From contig OX597831.1 of assembly GCA_951406725.2 (NCBI GenBank), forward strand, positions 35,030,001 to 35,094,000: a DNA stretch of 64,000 nucleotides, in the 5' to 3' direction. Below the pieces are notes generated by a model. That model searched no databases, was not told the DNA's origin, and was given only the letters and a program-made list of their open reading frames with translations. How positions within the stretch are numbered: position 1 is the first letter of the stretch; every line of letters begins with the position of its first letter. This document shows positions 553-64,000 of the stretch, piece by piece. Source of the DNA: Octopus vulgaris. Taxonomy: Eukaryota. Made by a program: the position numbers and the translations under genes.

Positions 553-633
553 TGTCTTTGAGGAACCAAGGGAAATTATTTTGGTAACTTTCGGTGGAAC
601 AACAACAAACTGGAAAAAATCAACATCTTTTGG
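553..633 (-). CDS. Internal exon, 81 bp, phase 0 (PKDVDFFQFVVVPPKVTKIISLGSSKT), uncharacterised protein
   Basis: Acceptor ttttcattcatttcgcAG, donor GTAAGT, open frame, unique non-repeat sequence. Confidence 0.65.
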
Positions 634-14425: not shown

Positions 14426-15338
14426 AACCTAAGTATATAATGCTAGAAAATGAACTCATGCCAGGAACACCCTCTGAATGATGAAAACTTAATAGAGACA
14501 TAGAACAAACTGCTAGACTGACAATACATGTGTTCACTAAAAAAAGATATCAAATGTTTGGTTTATTGGACAGACTGTTACATTAAAAAGACTTGTGTTC
14601 ATATTTTCAACCACTAAACATTTGGTTCACAATATTACATGTTAGGTTAGGCGAGGTGTTCATGCTTGTATTTTTAATGAATCTAAACTGAGCAAATTTT
14701 ATGCTATTTAACTCTTTGCCTGCCTTGTGTGTTACATGTGATATGTGTCACATGTAATAACAGCACATACATCCCTGGCATCCATGCATCATATATAATA
14801 CATATTCCTGATTATGTTTCAGCTATCAGTATAACTTGTCACTTATGAAAGGAAAGCTTTCTATTGCTTAGAACATTTGAAACCAGGGCTAACTAAAAGT
14901 CTGAAAACAAGCACGGCTGTTTAATCCTGAAGTATTCATATTACTCTGTCTAATGTAATGTTTCTCCATTCATATCGTTTTGAATTAATCATGCATTAAG
15001 TTGCAGCTTTGAGATTTCAATGATGTGATTGTTTATGATTTGAATGACATTGTAGAGTCTGTGTGAGAGGCCTGATATAACCAGTTTGAGTATAAAACAG
15101 GTAAAACATTCTGGGACAGATATGACTAGTTTAAATGATAAAGAGTTAAGGCAAGCTTATGAAAATTCTTTTAGTGGGAAAAAATTAAAATTAAAATTAA
15201 AATTTTTTTTCGCCTTAGCAATACAGAAATACTACAAAGACAATTTAGAGTGCTGCTAACTGGAAGAAAGACAAAAGCTGTTACAAGACAAAGGAAAATA
15301 AATGACTGGGAAAATCAAAAGATAGAGCCATTGCTAAC

Positions 15339-15554
15339 CTGTGGCGAACTATGGTGATTTTCAGCATGGAATAATTTCTTTGTTTGTTTTGGGTTAGTTG
15401 TAATATCAGATTGCAGGTCTTTAGTAGTCTTCATTTTGGTTCCCATTACTGCAACAAGACTGAGGGGAGTGTATTCCGTAGAATAAACTGTCTTGTTTAA
15501 TCTTTGTAATCCTGGCTGGAAATGCCACTTTCTCTGAATGCTGGGAGAATTCAT
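15339..15554 (-). CDS. Coding exon (MNSPSIQRKWHFQPGLQRLNKTVYSTEYTP...HHSSPQ), uncharacterised protein
   Basis: 72 open codons ending at CAG|GTTAGC, phase 0. Acceptor at 15587; an in-frame TAA sits directly before the ATG. Confidence 0.55.
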
Positions 15555-16113: not shown

Positions 16114-16223
16114 TTACTTTTCTTTTTTGATTTTATTTATTTTTCTTTTTTTGTAAATATGACTGTTTTGAATTTGAGTAGGTGACTTCATAGTTTTGCA
16201 ATCGGTAATCCTGCTTGACAACA
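16114..16223 (-). CDS. Putative last coding exon of upstream exon set (..LSSRITDCKTMKSPTQIQNSHIYKKRKINKIKKEK*)
   Basis: Acceptor ttttcattcatttgctctatAG; phase 1 matches exon 22511-22661; TAA at 16114-16116. Confidence 0.5.
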
Positions 16224-16858: not shown

Positions 16859-16904
16859 CCAAACTATCATTATCTAATTCTATGTTTGCTTATATATATA
16901 TATA

Positions 16905-17105
16905 TAAAATACAAAATGGGACAAGAACGCAAAACATCCAGACAGTTAGGTGATATAAAAAGGGGACAACAAAACATCCAGATAGATGATACAAAGAAAA
17001 CAAGGACGGGTCATTAGGAGTTTTCTTTCTTCAGTCGAGTTCCAGATTATCTTTGCAATTTCGGCTGGTTATACTTGAGATTGCTCCAATCTGGCCAGCC
17101 CCAAG
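16905..17105 (-). mobile_element. Unclassified retroposon fragment
   Basis: Homologous copy in the opposite orientation at about 27400-27625. Confidence 0.6.
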
Positions 17106-17257
17106 CTAACATGGCAGTCCAGGAAAATAGAACAAAAGCTGCCATTGATTAGCTCCAAGAGGCCATCGCCTTTAGCTAGCTATGTGACACACAAACCTGT
17201 GTCCATTATAACCTTCAAACAAGGGAGGTCAGCAGCTTCCCCTTACTGGTTCAACAT

Positions 17258-17298
17258 CCACAGACTAGTTTCGGGGTGATTGCCCCTTCTCAATGTGG
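17258..17298 (-). ncRNA. Minimal type I hammerhead ribozyme, U3-A8 covariant
   Basis: CCACA-TTGAGAA-GGGG-caatca-CCCC-GAAA-C-TA-G-TC-TGTGG, with perfect stems I and II and a GUC triplet. Confidence 0.8.
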
Positions 17299-17789
17299 AG
17301 TAGCTGAACCCAGCAGGCATTGCTGCTGACCATCTGTTCGAAGGTTTCTTTACCTATTTTCAGTGGAACACATCCACTGGTTTTAAGAAGAAGAAGAAGA
17401 ATTCCCTGATGCAGTACCAGGTAGTGGCTATCATGACCTCTGATTTTAACTGATTGGAAATGTTATCATGTACATTGTTTTGTCTTCATATAAAAGATGG
17501 GCTACAGCAAATATTCTGCTCAATACCACAGATTTGCTTGTCAGTTGTTTGACCTTAACCAGTTGAGCATGTCTCTTAGTGGCTGACGATATGTGCATCT
17601 CTAATCTTTTTAAAGAAACTCACAATTACAACAGATGTTCATTCTCTTTGATTTCCAATACTTTATGTTGTGATATGTGTTCTTCCATTGCATACTTTGT
17701 CTTGATGGGAAAAGTATATATTTCTTTGGTTTTGCATTTTTTTCTTTCATCAGGGAAAGGGTGCTATGCACACTAAGATAATTATTGAT

Positions 17790-18870
17790 TTACAATCTTG
17801 ATAAGGAGAGTTTGTTTCAGAGGATTTAGTTGACTATTTCCTGGTGGTCAAGGTATCTCGGGAGGTATGTCTATAACGAACACAACATTTTGGAGCGATA
17901 GCATCGATGTTATACCTTGTGATCTGTTGTATGACATGTGCTCATCATTCTTGGTGACCGGGCAGCTGCTGGCTTCTTCTGCAGCTGCCCGGTCACCTAC
18001 CCTATTTTGCAATTCAGCTCAAGTGAGATCTTGCTTGATAGTCACCTTCAAGACAGAATGCACCATTTCTCTACAATTAAGAAATGGTGAGTAGGGAGGT
18101 AAGAGTTTCAGACTAACCCATGGGTCAGTGTCAGCTGGGAGCTTGGCACGAACATGTAGTAGATCAAGCAGATAGATTCATCCATTGGGACATTCCGGCA
18201 CATGCTCAAACAGTTTCTGCCAAGAACTCCTCAAAAGAGTTTTATGTAACATTATCGTTCGCAATGGAGTGGTGAACCAGGCTGATTTCTCCCGACACTG
18301 TGAAAGTGATGTATCAGTTTTTCCCATGCTGACAGTTGAAAACTAGGCAAACAGGAACACCTCAAGGTGCTTATCCAAAAGACTGGCTGGTCCAAATGTT
18401 GTACTAACATTCATCAATGAATATGCAATGGCCAACGACTTCCTCTTCCATGAACCAATGCTTTTCCAGACTTCTTGGAGTGTTTCTTGTTGTAATCTGA
18501 GGCGTCTTCGACCAACTTCATAGTTATCAACATCTCATCTAGAGCTCGTGAGATTGCAGACACAGAAACAGGTGACTTTCCATGCTTTGCTGCCTTTAAG
18601 TCCCTCTTCCTCTTTTGAAGGATTGCAAGTGGGTTGGTATCAATAATCACCTGAAGCCTGGCTCGCATTTCCTTACCAAGCTTAACTTTTCTGGGTAACT
18701 TGTGGCGCCTCCCAGACAGTAGGTAGGTCACTACTGTGGATCAAGCAGTACTCCTTTGAATGCCAAGTGTGTCTGCCAATTGCAGGTAATTGGTTTGATG
18801 CCACTCAAAGGTGGCAACCAGCCTTGCCCTATCTTCATTCAATATATGCATGTACCTTACACGTGGCTCC
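17790..18870 (-). pseudogene. Degraded IS630/Tc1-like DDE transposase
   Basis: HTH-like LADTLGIQRST; CIFIDE and LLPPYSPFLN motifs; multiple stops and frameshifts. Confidence 0.75.
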
Positions 18871-19619
18871 TTGATTACAACTTGATGTCAAAGAAAGGAA
18901 TATAGAATGCAACTGATAGCAATTGGTCACGAATGTTGCAATGAAAAAGACTTTTGTGAACAGAAGAATCGCATAATTTATTCCTTCTTTGTAGGTTTAA
19001 TAACGTAATAAAATTTGCATGACAAAACATGTCATTCAAATTTGTCATTTTTAACATCCACTTCTTAGAATGTGAGTAAAAATACAAATGTAAAATTAGT
19101 GCTAAATTGAATAAACTTATTCTGAACACAAATGCTCACATGTGAATTTTAATGCTCGAAAAAAATGCTTCCTCGCATTCCAACTAATTTGAATGCTCTC
19201 AACTGGCATTTCAATTTCAATGATGTAAATGTTAAATTCTTTGACCAAAGTGCAAAACTGAATGATTGAAAAGCGAAATTGAATGACTAATTTCATGGCG
19301 TTAATTTTTTTGCAGCTTTGAGTGACCCAATTATCAAACTGAATGACAAACATACAAAAACGACAGTAAAAACCTTTAATAATAATAATAATAATAATAA
19401 TTCTTTCTTCTTTAGGCACAAGTGGTACTTATTTTATCAACTTCTGAATAATAAAAATAATCATCATCCTCATCATTTAATATCCATTTTCCATGCTGGC
19501 ATTTTCCAAATCCACTCACAAGGCTTTTGTTGACTCAGGACTGTAGTAGAAGACACCTGCCCAAGGTGCTCTGCAGTGGGATTGAACCTGGAACCATATG
19601 GTTGGGAAGCAAACTTCTT

Positions 19620-22487
19620 TATTTCACATATAATTTGCCATTAAGGCATTTACAAAGAGGGGACAAACAAGGACAGAAAAACACAAAGGGTGAAGAAGCT
19701 TCTAACGATTAAAAATTACAAATGAAATAACGAATGAAATTACGAACAATGAATTATACAAAAAGAATTAACAAGTTTAAAATTTTTCATATAAATCATG
19801 TCGAAAGCAAGGCACCCAGCCATTTGGGTAGAATCTTTACTTTTCAACCTGGCCCCCACCTACCTGGTGCCACTCATACCCAGCTTACACACCACAGTCT
19901 CCCATCTTTCCACAAACATATCTCATGACAGATACCTCCTTCCCAGCCTGATCTTACTACTGAGGTGGAAACTAAAGAAGTTGACCAACCCCTGGACAGA
20001 GATGAAGGTGCCTGTCACTATACCTTTCATACGTGTCTTCCATACTGTTTCTTTCAGTATGGCTACTACGCAGAAAAAACAAGTCTTCTTTTCCCCGTTG
20101 AGGAAAAGAAGCGGCAGAATCTCGATGATAGACTCAGCTGATAGCTGTACTCTTCCTGATAACAGTTGTTTGGCAAAAGCTACTAGTCCCGATAACTCCA
20201 GACACTCCACGAATGTGTGCAAGATGGTTTTCTTATCTTACCCACATCTCAGGCATGTTGGCGAGACAGCACTTCCATACCTTGGCAGCTTATCATGAAC
20301 AGTTAACGCCAAACCAGACTCCTAGCAACTTAACAGAACGTTCCGTCCAATGTCCCACGACATTACTGGACGCCATCGGCTTGCCCCTCTAGGTACCGAG
20401 TTGCAAACCGACAGACTTGTCCTTGTTAACTTTTGCTCCAGTCACCGCTTCGTAAACTTTGATGGGCTCTTCCATGATGGGAAGTTGAGCCTCATCAGCC
20501 ATGATGATGGAGATGTCATCCACATACACTGTATTCCTCTTCCCCACCATAGATCATGCAGCACGTTCCCTAGTGCCTCCAACTTCTGCAGCAATGGTTC
20601 AAGAGCCAACACATACAAAAGCGGAGACAGAGGACACCTTGACGGACTGAATACTCAATCTCGAACAGCTTTGAAAGAAACCGTTCACTTTGACGACAGA
20701 AGGTTGGGCCCAGGCCAGCTTTTTTGAGGACTGCCACCAAGTACTGATGGTCAATCCTACCAAATACCTTAGACTGGTCTAAATGCACCAGTGCTCCCCC
20801 TGTGCCAGAAAGTTTCCTAACCCTTTCTAAGGCGTAACGTATAAGGTGGATTGTCGTGGATTGACCTGCCAAGGATAATGCAAGTCTGTGCTTCCCTGAC
20901 AAGTCAGTCCACGACCCTTGCCAACATTTTTGCTAGCACCTTGGCCAAAATCCTGTTTAAATGAGTTATGGGCCTAAAGTTACCTATCTCACCCCCCTTG
21001 CTCGGGTCCATTCTGATCAGTGCCACCATCCCCCGGCTTACAGACTCGGGAATTCTCCCATTCTGCTGCCAGTTGGCATAAACACTAGCCAGTAGGTGCC
21101 CGAACAAGTCTGGCATACTTTTATAAAATTCATAAAGTAGAACATCAAGACCTGGCGACTTCTCCCCGGGGCACTCGTCCAGCGCCTTGATTATCTCCTC
21201 GACTGTGATTGGCCCTTCATAGCACTCAGCCTCTCATGCCGAGAGACACGGGTCACCAGACTGGAAGTCCCTAAGGGCCTCACTATGATCCAGCACCCTC
21301 CCCCCCACCGGCTGAACAACTTGGCAAAGTGCTTGTAAAGCACCTCACACATCTCGTCCCGTCCTTCAACAAAACATCCATTTTCATTGATAAGATACCT
21401 AATTGTGGCATCGATGCCATGCTGGGTTTCTATCATACGGGCTGATCTGGCAACATTAATTCCCTCATGGCCCAATGCTTGCACTTTAGCCCGAACACTG
21501 CACCCCTCATGTGTGGCTTTGAGGTGACAGTCCAATGCTGTTCTCACTGCCAAAATGTGCAATGCAGAGCCCAACCTCAATGCCTCCTCTAAGTCCTTAA
21601 CTAATTGCCCTTCTATTCTAGCTCTATCTAGTCTTAGCTGCTTGCTAAACCTAATGGACTCAAATCGAGTGGCTCTTTTGAAGGTGAACCACCACTGGTT
21701 ATTAACCACAGTGCTAGTTGAAGCCCTCTGCACTAACTCCTTAATGCGGCTACGGTACGCCTCACAAGTCAAAATAGATTTGTTAAGCTTACAGTAGCCG
21801 GAAGTCTACACTTAACCATTCTATGGTCAGAGTAGAACATCTGAACAAGCTGAAGACAACTAAAGCTAGCCTTATCTTTTGCTCTTATAACTATCTTATC
21901 TAAGTAAGACTTGAACCTTTTGTCGTCATTAATCCAGGTCCACTTTGGGACATCTGGATGGTCAAGCCTATAACAATCTGCTAGCTGAAAATGCTTAAGC
22001 AAATTTATGAGATGTGAGTTCACTTTCCTCTCAGTCGAGCCAACACTTTTAATGCGTGCATCAACAATAGTGTTAAAGTCCCCTAAGACCACTAATGTCT
22101 TCAACATCACAAGAAAGTTCTCTAGGTGCCGATAAAAATCAGTTTGGAAACCTCTAGCACAAGGTGCATAGAGTCCGATCAGCCTGAAGGCCTTACGGCT
22201 GTATGTCACATCAATGACGACCAGCCCACCCTCAGGGTCCACGTAGATTGTACTTGTCTGCAGAGCCAAGCATTTACGGATCAGTACCACCACACCTCCT
22301 CGTGGCCAGGAGACATGATTTTCTCATAGCCATTCGAGAGAGGTGAGAAAGCCTGTAGACTGTCCAGCTTGGTCTCTGTAGCAACCATCACATGTATATC
22401 ATGTGATCTGGGGTCATCGAGGAAACAAGCCTGCTTCAAACTTCAGACCAGGTACATTCAAACAACCAAGGTTGAGGAAGGCCATTG
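19620..22487 (-). mobile_element. L1/Tx1-clade LINE ORF2 plus 3' UTR, degraded
   Basis: MAFLNLGCLNV start; APE endonuclease motifs (LGDFN, YLD, SDH); RT motifs (NFRPITHLN, LDQSKVFGRIDH, SVRQG); C-terminal C-x2-C..H..C. Confidence 0.85.
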
Positions 22488-22510: not shown

Positions 22511-22661
22511 TTTTCATTGGAGAAGTTGGGGCCGACTTCACCACACATGAATCAGCCCCTTCCTTTTCTTCTTTCTTCAAATAATTAGGTAAATTGATGA
22601 TTTTCCAGACTTCTTGAATTCTTTTATATATTTCCTCATTTTTTTTTACAGTATTTCTTAT
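22511..22661 (-). CDS. Internal exon, 151 bp (IRNTVKKNEEIYKRIQEVWKIINLPNYLKKEEKEGADSCVVKSAPTSPMK)
   Basis: Open in phase 0 following exon 23023-23292; donor GTAAGT; the acceptor is weak. Confidence 0.6.
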
Positions 22662-23022: not shown

Positions 23023-23292
23023 CTTGTGAAGTGGGATCCAACGTTTCAAATGCGGAATCCATATCAACTTTGGTTTGAATTTTATTCCATCATTTTGTGT
23101 CCAATATTTTGGTTTAGGTTCACATCTGAAATTGTGTTGGGCGTGATGTGATCCCCCAGTCTTGCTACAACTTCTCCAATAGTGACATTTTCTTTGAGCA
23201 TGAGGAATCACTGGTCTATCATTCCATTTATCATTTATATAGTATGGACCTTTAATAAAAGGTTCCAAACACCCAGTCGCCATGTTGAAAGC
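23023..23292 (-). CDS. Coding exon, 270 bp, phase 0 (AFNMATGCLEPFIKGPYYINDKWNDRP...KRWIPLHK), uncharacterised basic protein
   Basis: Acceptor ttgttctatttctAG, donor AAG|GTGAGA, 90 open codons in AT-rich unique DNA. Confidence 0.75.
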
Positions 23293-61106: not shown

Positions 61107-63236
61107 TCATGGAGGCTTTCTAGCAACTGCTATTTGGTGCATGAGAGAGTTCGATGCAGCTGCCCTCATCTGCCCCTCCTGCCGTGAAGTTGGTTCATCT
61201 GGGACACCTGACAGGAAGAGATCCAGCTTCATTTTAAAGACATCTGTATCCGCCCCATGCAGGTCTCTCAGGTTCTTCGGGAGGATATTGAAGAGCTGTG
61301 GGCCTCGGAAGCCCAGGCTATCACAGAATCTTGTCCTACATCTTGATGGCAGGTTTGGAGTCCTAGGCACCACGCAGTGGCGCCCAGTTCTGGCATTTGC
61401 ATAACTCTCGATGCCAAAGTTCAGGACACTTCCCTCCAGGATCTTCCAGATGTATATTATGGCATATCTTTCCCGCCTACGCTCCAGGGAATATAATTTT
61501 AATCTCTTGAGTCTTTCCCAGTAGCTTACATTCTGCATAGAGGCTATCTTCTTTGTGTAGCTTCGTTGGATCGCCTCAAGTTCTGTGATCAACTTGACAC
61601 TGGATGGTGACCATAGCTGAGAGCAATAGTCAAAGTGGCTTAGGACAAGTGTCTTCCAGAGGACCGTCATGGTTTCTTGTTCTCTTGTTCTAAAGGTTCT
61701 AAGAATCCATCCAGCCAGCCGTCTACATTTCATTGTCAGTTTAGCAACATGTACATGAAAGGTCGCGTCATCACTCATGTGAATACCCAGGTCACGCACT
61801 GATTGTGCCTCTGGGATTGCAATCCCTCCGGGTCCAGTGTATTCATTGGGTATTGCATTCAGTTTTGCATGCTGATAGTATAAAGCTTGAAACTTTCCAG
61901 CATTGAACTGCATGCTATTCTTTTCAGCCCACTTGTATATTTCGTCCAGCTCACATTGCAGGTGTTTAGTGTCCTCAGGGTTCTGTATTGCCTGTGAAAC
62001 TTTTGTATCATCTGCATAACTTGTGATCGTGGATCTCTGCGTGGCTGAGGGCATGTCTGAGAGGGCCATTATGAACAGTAGTGGTCCCAAAACAGTGCCC
62101 TGTGGAACACCGCTCACTATTTGCGTGCTAATGGAAGTGGCCCCATTGGCTACTACCACCTGACTTCTATTCTTCAGAAAGTCATGAAGCCATTCTCCTA
62201 GTTTTCCAACTATGCCAAGATCACGCAGTTTGTGACATATCATTCCATGATCGACTTTATCGAAGGTCTTTGCGAAGTCGAGATATATGACTTCAACATT
62301 TGAGTGGTTGAGCAGTTGTTTCAGCACCCAGTCATAGTGCTGCAGGAGCTGAGTTAAGCAGCTTCTTCCTGGTCGGAAACCATGTTGGGTGTCAGGCAGC
62401 AAGTCATTTTCTTCAAGGAAGGTGATTAGTTTCCTTCTGACTATTCGTTCCATGACCTTGCTGATGTGTGAGGTCAGAGAGATAGGTCTGTAATTCTTGG
62501 CCTCCGCTCTGCTACCTCCTTTATGAATAGGGCATATTTTACCTTCCTTCAGTCCCCTTGGAAGTTTGCCAGCTGCAAGGAAGCTCTGAAAGAGGAACTG
62601 CAGTGGTCTTGCTAAGACTCTCTTACATACTTTTAGGAGGATTGCCGGGAATCCATCGGGGCCAATAGCTGAGTCTATTTTCATTTCATCTATAGCCTTT
62701 ATTACATCGTCTTCCTTTATATCGATGTAATTTATCGTCGCCGCCTCTGATTCTATATCTGCAGTGGTAAAGAAGTCAGTTGGATTGCTGATTTGGAAAT
62801 GCCCAAGGGGTGGAGTGAAAACACTCTTGAATTGTTCATTCAGTATTTCACTTACCCTCATTGGTTTTCCTGTGAGTGTGCCATCCTTTTCAAGGAGTGG
62901 CCCTATCCTACAGTGCACCGTAGCTGTTTCTTTGGCATACCTGTAGAAAGCTCTGGGGTTAGTTTTTATGTTGTCTATAGCCCAGGCTTCTTTGTCTGCT
63001 CTTTCCTTCTCATGGGAGAGTTGCAGACAATTTTCAATTTCCAACAGTTTTATTTTCAGGCGGGACTTTTCACTGCTTTCAATTTGTTTGTTTAGGCGAT
63101 TTGAAATTTTTGTACGCCGTCTCATTAAAATTTTCCTCTCTCTGGGGATTTTGTTCTTGTGTACAGTGGCCTTTCTCTCTGGGACACATTTGTAGCATAT
63201 GGCTTGCATTACAGACATGAATTGTTGAAGTATCAT
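61107..63236 (-). CDS. Non-LTR reverse transcriptase (ORF2 C-terminal part)
   Basis: NYRPISLTS, QHGFRPGRSC, YLDFAKTFDKV, GVPQGTVLGP and YADD motifs. Confidence 0.93.
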   Translation of the reverse strand: MILQQFMSVMQAICYKCVPERKATVHKNKIPRERKILMRRRTKISNRLNKQIESSEKSRLKIKLLEIENCLQLSHEKERADKEAWAIDNIKTNPRAFYRYAKETATVHCRIGPLLEKDGTLTGKPMRVSEILNEQFKSVFTPPLGHFQISNPTDFFTTADIESEAATINYIDIKEDDVIKAIDEMKIDSAIGPDGFPAILLKVCKRVLARPLQFLFQSFLAAGKLPRGLKEGKICPIHKGGSRAEAKNYRPISLTSHISKVMERIVRRKLITFLEENDLLPDTQHGFRPGRSCLTQLLQHYDWVLKQLLNHSNVEVIYLDFAKTFDKVDHGMICHKLRDLGIVGKLGEWLHDFLKNRSQVVVANGATSISTQIVSGVPQGTVLGPLLFIMALSDMPSATQRSTITSYADDTKVSQAIQNPEDTKHLQCELDEIYKWAEKNSMQFNAGKFQALYYQHAKLNAIPNEYTGPGGIAIPEAQSVRDLGIHMSDDATFHVHVAKLTMKCRRLAGWILRTFRTREQETMTVLWKTLVLSHFDYCSQLWSPSSVKLITELEAIQRSYTKKIASMQNVSYWERLKRLKLYSLERRRERYAIIYIWKILEGSVLNFGIESYANARTGRHCVVPRTPNLPSRCRTRFCDSLGFRGPQLFNILPKNLRDLHGADTDVFKMKLDLFLSGVPDEPTSRQEGQMRAAASNSLMHQIAVARKPP

Positions 63237-63272
63237 GTCGATGTCCGGCGAGGAGAGACATTCAGGCCAGTT

Positions 63273-63857
63273 TTATTTGAGGATCTCTTTCTCAATTTGT
63301 TTCCAGTTTGCCTTATTGAAGTTCAAGCTGGAAAGATTCTGAGGGTTTCTTGTAGGCTGCATGTCCGTGCTCTCTTTTGGCCCGTACATGGTCAGCTCTA
63401 CCATGTTGTGATCCGAGAGTAGTGTCGGTGTCACTTTCACATTATGGATGAGATCCATATTATTTGTGAAGCAGAGATCCAGTGTGTTACCTGCTCTGGT
63501 TGGTTGCAGTATTACTTGCTCCATGTACAGGGTGTTGGTGAGGTTCAGGAGGGACCTCGCCTGTCCACGTTCACATCTTGTCATTCCTGGGAGAGAAAGG
63601 CCCTCGGGCCATCTGACATTCGGTAGATTGAAGTCTCCCATGAGAAGTACACTTATGTGTTGTTCTAATGTGGTTAGAACTTCTTCTATTTTTATAAGGC
63701 AGTCCTCAAACTTGCCCATATGACTTGGGGCATCTGGAGGGCGATATGTAGCACACACAACTACATCAAGTTGCCTTATGTGTACAATTAGTGTGTCACA
63801 CACCGAGTTTGAGTATGACAAAAGGACCTGGGGTGTGAGGTCCCCACGGATGTACAT
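63273..63857 (-). CDS. APE-type endonuclease domain of LINE ORF2 (frameshifted from the RT part)
   Basis: YRPP, MGDFNLP, PTRAGNTLDLCF and SDHN motifs. Confidence 0.88.
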   Translation of the reverse strand: MYIRGDLTPQVLLSYSNSVCDTLIVHIRQLDVVVCATYRPPDAPSHMGKFEDCLIKIEEVLTTLEQHISVLLMGDFNLPNVRWPEGLSLPGMTRCERGQARSLLNLTNTLYMEQVILQPTRAGNTLDLCFTNNMDLIHNVKVTPTLLSDHNMVELTMYGPKESTDMQPTRNPQNLSSLNFNKANWKQIEKEILK

Positions 63858-64000
63858 AGCAACTCCTCCATGACTCCTTTCTTTCCTGTCGGTCCGTAGT
63901 ACAACATACTGTGGTATGTGTAATTCCGCATCTGCTATGTCCGGTTTCAGATGCGTTTCTGTGAGTGCTATGCATAAGGCTTGATTGCATGCGACAAAGT

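Follow-up and report, generated by a model that had tools for sequence, protein, structure and literature searches.

The minus strand of the 64,000-nt stretch of the Octopus vulgaris genome analysed here (the window) carries, within an intron, a hammerhead-like sequence whose core has U3 and A8 instead of C3 and G8. This locus raises the questions of whether the motif is a genuine ribozyme, what kind of element brought it there, and whether it cuts the pre-mRNA in which it lies. As developed below, the motif is quite probably the hammerhead of a dispersed, non-coding 361-nt retrozyme (family A) in which U3-A8 is fixed and which is copied by Penelope-type enzymes, with the lone copy of the window being a nearly inactive passenger that is predicted to cut as a dimer only.

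The hammerhead motif and its fold

17258..17298, minus strand: type I hammerhead with stem I, a U3-A8 core, a 4-bp stem II, a palindromic minimal helix III and a GUC site (sequence and covariation)
17264..17269, minus strand: 6-nt palindrome replacing helix III, predicted to pair between molecules (folding, and palindrome-keeping double changes in relatives)
17228..17330, minus strand: extended stem I hairpin around the ribozyme, about 30 bp, interrupted (103 nt fold with -49.3 kcal/mol; z = -4.37 over a stretch of 126 nt)

An initial annotation of this DNA had described a U3/A8 core, a 5-bp stem I, a 4-bp stem II and a GUC site, and direct reading of the minus strand recovers all of them, as well as the proposed cut, which is correctly located between 17263 and 17262. 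The 5' arm of stem I (17298-17294) forms 5 bp with the 3' arm (17262-17258), core positions 3-9 (17293-17287) read U3, U4, G5, A6, G7, A8 and A9, and stem II is a 4-bp G-C helix (17286-17283 with 17276-17273) closed by a 6-nt loop. On the 3' side of stem II are found GAA (17272-17270), the palindrome (17269-17264) and C17 (17263). The sequence thus contains the bases expected of a hammerhead core, namely positions 3-9, G12-A13-A14, A15.1-U16.1, H17 and a Watson-Crick 3-8 pair in which U3-A8 replaces C3-G8. Beyond its 5 bp, stem I extends into a helix of about 30 bp that has interruptions (17330-17299 paired with 17257-17228), and helix III, which was absent from the earlier description, is reduced to the 6-nt palindrome.

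The motif is not a chance look-alike, because its fold, its abundance and the covariation of its stems all set it apart from controls. The 126 nt at 17220-17345 fold with -54.3 kcal/mol (z = -4.37), and none of 200 shuffles was equally stable. A loose core pattern that included the palindrome of 17258-17298 had 632 matches in the genome versus 6 for the reversed control. In an alignment of 17 hand-picked rows (15 of them distinct) from family A, its sister family and a further family, B, 95.4% of the cells pair, as compared with 28-51% in slid controls. Both sides changed in 8 of 13 pairs, and the covariation score was reached by none of 500 shuffles, a result that is inflated by related rows; among the 15 distinct rows, two-sided changes affected 4 of the 5 stem I pairs and 3 of the 4 stem II pairs. 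As a point against the retrozyme reading, core positions were only weakly more conserved than random columns (3.5% vs 8.0%; 224 of 5,000 draws were as low). An Rfam scan matched no hammerhead model, either at the gathering score or at E values up to 10; its output consisted only of miRNA matches driven by microsatellites, which were set aside as noise.

Helix III and the host intron

In the fold of a single molecule, helix III (A15.1-U16.1) had a pairing probability of 0.0. When two copies were folded together, the minimum-energy structure was a double hammerhead with swapped strands, in which the palindromes of the two molecules pair with each other (-101.8 vs -98.6 kcal/mol), a gain of 3.2 kcal/mol that requires the exchange of the helix of about 30 bp. 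As judged by folding, a stable helix III forms between two copies only. The predicted double hammerhead agrees with the available text of three papers: single minimal motifs did not cleave and dimers did so at a low level (PMC4209133); axolotl motifs with a short helix III showed weak but real cleavage as monomers and efficient cleavage as dimers (PMC7229834); and a review likewise supports dimer-dependent cleavage (PMC6765202). In the accessible part of a recent preprint, 8 of 9 Xenopus dimers did not cleave (10.64898/2026.07.22.740005).

The gene around the motif was delimited by comparison with Octopus sinensis LOC115219818.

23023..23292, minus strand: upstream coding exon with AG/GT ends (98% identity to isoform X2 of LOC115219818, residues 1-87)
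553..633, minus strand: next coding exon of isoforms X1/X2 (comparison with the isoform proteins)
15333..15554, minus strand: alternative first coding exon of isoform X3, 3' end approximate (tblastn)

The intron between the first two of these exons (23022-634) is 22.4 kb long and contains the ribozyme in sense, with the next 3' splice site 16.6 kb further downstream; the coding start of isoform X3 (15554) lies 1.7 kb downstream of the predicted cut. The initial annotation had placed the motif in sense between exons 22511-22661 and 16114-16223. Its location in an intron of a real gene holds, but these two exons matched none of the five isoform proteins; open frames with AG/GT ends exist at both positions, with a sub-threshold Pfam match only, and they may be minor exons. 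A further alternative first coding exon, that of isoform X1, was located at 25474-25295 on the minus strand of the window. LOC115219818 encodes an uncharacterised protein with a weak EF-hand match, its N-terminal exons were found only in the O. sinensis isoforms among five cluster members, and the host gene ends about 27 kb beyond the start of the window. Contigs from four presumed-RNA runs were mostly repeat-derived and left most of the upstream exon uncovered, and no exon joint was seen among those listed. Pieces of the insertion were found in runs labelled organisms C and D with 53/53 and 123/124 identical letters, respectively; this identity of 99-100% exceeds that of the best own-genome paralogue (94%) and suggests that the insertion is shared with close species. 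The four further runs searched for the insertion, which supplied such near-identical pieces, yielded no contig bridging an insertion junction among the contigs listed.

Such a setting invites the reading that the intronic copy usefully cuts the X1/X2 pre-mRNA, either alone, helped by its long stem I or by proteins, or in trans with retrozyme RNA, and thereby lowers the long isoforms or favours X3. The sense orientation, the 16.6 kb that separate the motif from the next 3' splice site and the apparent sharing of the insertion with close species are consistent with it, and an intronic ribozyme acting on host mRNA has a precedent in CPEB3 (PMC10919898, as far as its available text goes). The state of the motif also fits. 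We gathered family A copies through a part of the unit away from the ribozyme, namely positions 180-361 (29 loci, not counting that of the query). Of the 27 full-span copies among them, 21 carry a lesion in the core, the stems or the palindrome and 6 carry none, and the window copy is likewise free of lesions at all of these sites. However, a reader seeking motifs would pick an intact copy, and about one copy in five is intact anyway; the decay of most family A ribozymes is as expected for passengers. Nor is the window ribozyme conserved in excess: relative to the family majority, it differs at 3 of 41 positions inside the ribozyme (position 7 and loop II) and at 18 of 244 outside (P = 1.0). 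These values, together with 1,575 candidate places for its sequence in the genome, differ from the low copy number and excess conservation of conserved intronic hammerheads. A single molecule is not predicted to form helix III, two copies would have to exchange a long helix for a small gain, and the gene offers no partner, as neither a second family A copy nor a same-sense hammerhead was found in the 264 kb that cover it. We consequently regard useful cutting of the host transcript as unlikely.

One other hammerhead-like motif was found in these 264 kb; it has C3-G8 and a palindromic helix III, and lies antisense to the host gene (L193, genome C18:35020869, plus strand).

The ready cleavage of the pre-mRNA that the initial annotation implied is thus not borne out by the folding models. 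Because cutting by the window copy is predicted to require a dimer, for which the gene holds no partner, this copy is likely to be nearly inactive, and the lone intronic copy is most likely a nearly silent passenger with little or no cutting. Some monomer activity is possible, since axolotl monomers cleave weakly in the available account (PMC7229834) and nearest-neighbour folding ignores tertiary stabilisation. A highly improbable variant is that the lone hammerhead is a conditional cutter, silent alone and activated in trans by retrozyme RNA via the palindrome. If this were true, transposon expression would truncate the long host pre-mRNA and shift output to the downstream-starting isoform, and each intact sense-intronic family A copy would be a sensor of retrozyme activity. 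A role in host-gene control would matter more than that of a passenger; it has little support, and regulation of the host gene by the window copy is unlikely.

A dispersed 361-nt repeat and its probable mode of insertion

17101..17385, minus strand: incomplete single unit of family A, covering about positions 11-295 of the 361 nt; probable non-LTR retrozyme (76-93% identity to 41 near-full copies)
16890..17105, minus strand: 3'-terminal 210 nt of family C, a second repeat, which shares 5 nt with family A at their junction (17105-17101) and ends at a TA microsatellite (40/40 scored matches; junction and 3' flanks in 20 loci)

The preferred reading, that the motif belongs to a retrozyme, begins with its copy number. 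The 131-nt ribozyme region had 1,575 candidate places in the 2.8-Gb genome, 40 of which were scored and gave 42 matches at 84-100% identity. Within the window, the family A match spans 17395-17101, with the first 10 or so bases coming from a flanking repeat; elsewhere the sequence runs 66 nt further and then restarts, which defines a head-to-tail unit of 361 nt. The unit has no long open frame of its own in the 60 loci scanned. Family A thus combines a non-coding unit within the 150-450 bp range of retrozymes, a type I hammerhead, and head-to-tail units with at least two hammerheads; two hammerhead-bearing units in tandem were found in family A (L022) and in a sister family (L103). By these testable criteria, as read from the DNA, family A is a non-LTR retrozyme, for which a circular RNA is predicted. 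The window copy itself, as a partial monomer, does not count as 'active' under the rule given in the available part of the preprint 10.64898/2026.07.22.740005.

The sister tandem (L103:199-900, plus strand) comprises two units of 365 nt, is 76% identical to family A, carries U3-A8 with a different palindrome, and stands tail to tail with a Penelope-type element. It was considered as a part of that element and rejected, as it is a separate insertion on the opposite strand.

We then collected 154 distinct family A pieces from 92 loci, some of which overlap. In this set, 35 pieces continue into a next unit, inverted pieces are common beside the 5' ends, and the 3' ends fall at unit positions 352-361 (53 ends), at 304-318 (38) or elsewhere (28). 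A simple repeat adjoins 57 of the 91 ends at the two preferred positions versus 7 of the 28 others; target-site duplications are masked by these microsatellite flanks. The cut site lies within 84 pieces, and 5' ends are rarely close to it (2 of 100); we infer from this that the template for copying was a circle or an uncut multimer rather than a cut linear monomer.

Family C had 3,284 candidates in the genome, and all 40 that were scored matched at 93-100%. The TA repeat at about 16890 terminates the family C piece of the window, as in its other copies. None of 19 other family C loci has family A upstream in the arrangement of the window; one of them contains an inverted family A piece. The simplest reading of the A/C fusion would be a template switch by one reverse transcriptase, and the fusion suggests that two unrelated non-coding repeats use one such enzyme. 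Family C copies (L110-L128) are at least 360 nt long and also show inverted 5' pieces and TA-repeat ends; a simple scan found no canonical hammerhead in them.

Family A shows three traits that the available text of PMC8557442 describes for Penelope-like elements: partial tandem units, inverted pieces with 5' truncation, and insertion at microsatellites. Penelope-type GIY-YIG elements are abundant in this genome (51,326 candidates, of which 150 scored gave 151 matches); the 3' ends of six such elements that were printed resemble family A ends, and 4 of the 6 enter TA repeats within the stretch shown. Family A is likely mobilised by Penelope-like enzymes, as far as its sequence arrangement tells. 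This partner is deduced from the shape of the insertions only, since no autonomous Penelope element with the ribozyme or the unit was found: 60 family A loci, a small part of the candidates, had no reverse transcriptase or GIY-YIG frame beside the repeat, and 30 endonuclease loci of one Penelope family, likewise a small part, contained no family A end. Hammerhead pairs 4.9 and 5.6 kb apart were examined as candidates for an autonomous partner and were discarded, as they bracket Tx1-type LINEs inserted in another retrozyme family.

The family A unit might alternatively be the solo pLTR of an autonomous Penelope-like element left after strong 5' truncation, rather than a free retrozyme. Palindromic U3-A8 hammerheads with a short helix III are known from pLTRs (PMC4209133), and Penelope elements likewise leave inverted 5' pieces and insert at microsatellites (PMC8557442), as given in the available parts of these papers. 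Upstream of the unit start, however, family A copies enter the end of another family A unit and not coding sequence, and no Penelope-like open frame was present beside the repeat in the 60 loci. These results make the pLTR origin rather improbable. The mechanism is common to both readings, which differ only in the survival of a parent element.

Under the retrozyme reading, tandem source copies of family A would be transcribed, and adjacent hammerheads would swap strands and pair via the palindrome. The resulting double hammerhead would excise unit-length RNA, which would be ligated into a circle. A Penelope-type endonuclease/reverse transcriptase may then nick a TA repeat and copy the circle or an uncut multimer; at the window, copying may have begun on family C RNA and switched to family A RNA. 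The U3-A8 pair would go back to the source element, in which the tertiary pair was maintained by selection, and all copies would have inherited it.

Fixation of the U3-A8 pair, known hammerheads and neighbouring elements

U3-A8 was present in 33 of 33 aligned family A copies, selected through ribozyme likeness, and in 37 of 39 exact pattern matches, a set also selected through the ribozyme, in which the other 2 had C3-A8. Among the 29 copies selected outside the ribozyme, 28 had U3-A8 and the pair is deleted in the remaining one. The proposal of a natural covariant is thereby upheld and extended to a whole repeat family; the sister family (76% identity) also retains U3-A8, with both middle bases of the palindrome changed. 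Separate decay at positions 3 and 8, or a chance resemblance, might be suspected, as old repeats change most often from C to T and from G to A. This reading is almost certainly wrong: U3-A8 is fixed in family A, C3-G8 occurs in none of the 39, 33 and 29 copies, the stems covary, and the pattern has 632 matches against 6 for the control.

Across the 632 genome-wide matches that share the palindrome, C3 occurs in 66 (53 C3-G8 and 13 C3-A8, by hand count), so searches with descriptors in which C3-G8 is fixed badly undercount the hammerheads of this genome. A by-eye count of the first 100 listed matches gave about 47 with U3-A8 and about 47 with U3-G8, the latter almost all from family B with a GUU site. 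Cleavage rates of U3-A8 and U3-G8 variants are reportedly covered by Przybilski and Hammann (2007) and Lunse et al. (2017).

The U3-A8 exchange as such is not new. In their available texts, Perreault et al. (2011; PMC3088659) report covariation from C3-G8 to U3-A8 in several natural ribozymes and cite earlier proof of activity in vitro, and Cervera and de la Pena (2014; PMC4209133) report about 1,300 U3-A8 motifs in Schistosoma mansoni, in Penelope-like elements. Family A shares the covariation with the former set and, unlike those scattered examples, is a high-copy animal retroelement family with relatives that have C-G and U-G at the 3-8 pair. With the Schistosoma hammerheads, as far as described, it shares type I architecture, a palindromic short helix III, G10.1-C11.1 and U3-A8, as well as mostly single motifs and opposite-strand pairs 100-700 bp apart. 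It differs in its stem II of 4 bp instead of 7-8, in that nothing is inserted between positions 9 and 10.1, and in that no Penelope open frame flanked by family A was found. The long stem I of the window copy has no equivalent in the minimal motifs that were assayed there.

Metazoan non-LTR retrozymes are the closest match in the available parts of PMC7229834 and 10.64898/2026.07.22.740005. In the preprint, Li, Clavereau and Pollet (2026) regard animal retrozymes as non-autonomous Penelope derivatives and place 42-44% of Xenopus copies in introns. The likeness comprises a type I hammerhead in a non-coding unit of retrozyme size (361 nt; range 150-450 bp), units joined head to tail, numerous scattered monomers, Penelope-like elements in the same genome, frequent intronic copies (as with that of the window) and dimer-dependent motifs as in axolotl. 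Family A is unlike them, on the same partial texts, in its U3-A8 core and its stem I extended to about 30 bp, in occurring mostly as 1-1.6 units plus inverted 5' pieces and not as long arrays, and in the fusion of the window copy to a second repeat.

The hammerheads of C10orf118 and RECK, as well as CPEB3, are conserved intronic ribozymes of amniotes or mammals. The window copy resembles conserved intronic ribozymes in lying in sense in an intron of a protein-coding gene, and it differs in being repeat-derived and without a stable helix III or excess conservation, whereas those are conserved, low-copy and active as monomers, according to the portions available of PMC3088659 and PMC6765202. It also lacks, in contrast to them, a match to an Rfam hammerhead model.

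A literature search on hammerheads and Penelope-like elements in octopus found no report of such a family among the papers listed, so family A may be undescribed so far. On the preferred reading, the known retrozymes are extended by a cephalopod family whose core has U3-A8; the related families with C-G, U-G and U-A at the 3-8 pair provide a natural series for testing how far the pair may relax without loss of an element's ability to spread. A homogeneous high-copy subfamily of family B (L063, L064, L066, L072 and L073) has a 357-nt unit with a U3-G8 wobble and a GUU site, which could represent either a step between C-G and U-A or a derivative with relaxed pairing.

Family B is also the target of a young Tx1-type LINE with a zinc-knuckle ORF1 and an APE-RT ORF2 (L061:2199-7471, L062:2014-6654 and L159-L188), whose 3' ends are 96-100% alike. 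The LINE inserts about 25 nt 5' of the family B hammerhead core, with identical junctions and a target duplication of about 17 bp in two full-length copies. Family B follows 27 of 30 Tx1 3' ends by reading of the list (14 by a stricter script count; one locus is the query's own), and the targeted sites have C-G, U-G or U-A at the 3-8 pair. A literature search by title and abstract start found no report of Tx1 targeting a family B hammerhead. The same LINE family also lies beside a different hammerhead-like repeat in which core position 4 is changed (L160:1693-1790 and L167:1693-1790).

A decayed Tx1/L1-type LINE occupies about 19700-22400 on the minus strand of the window, in sense in the host intron, and is 67% identical to the retrozyme-targeting family. 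Specificity of Tx1 for family A was considered and rejected, as neither this decayed LINE nor the LINE beside L013 is followed by family A. Further along the window, a nearly intact LINE ORF2 was found at 61107-63998 on the minus strand (241 + 721 aa with one stop between them; endonuclease- and reverse transcriptase-like by inspection). Broken frames at 18111-18887, also on the minus strand, resemble a Tc1/IS630-type transposase by inspection; the piece tested had no Pfam match.
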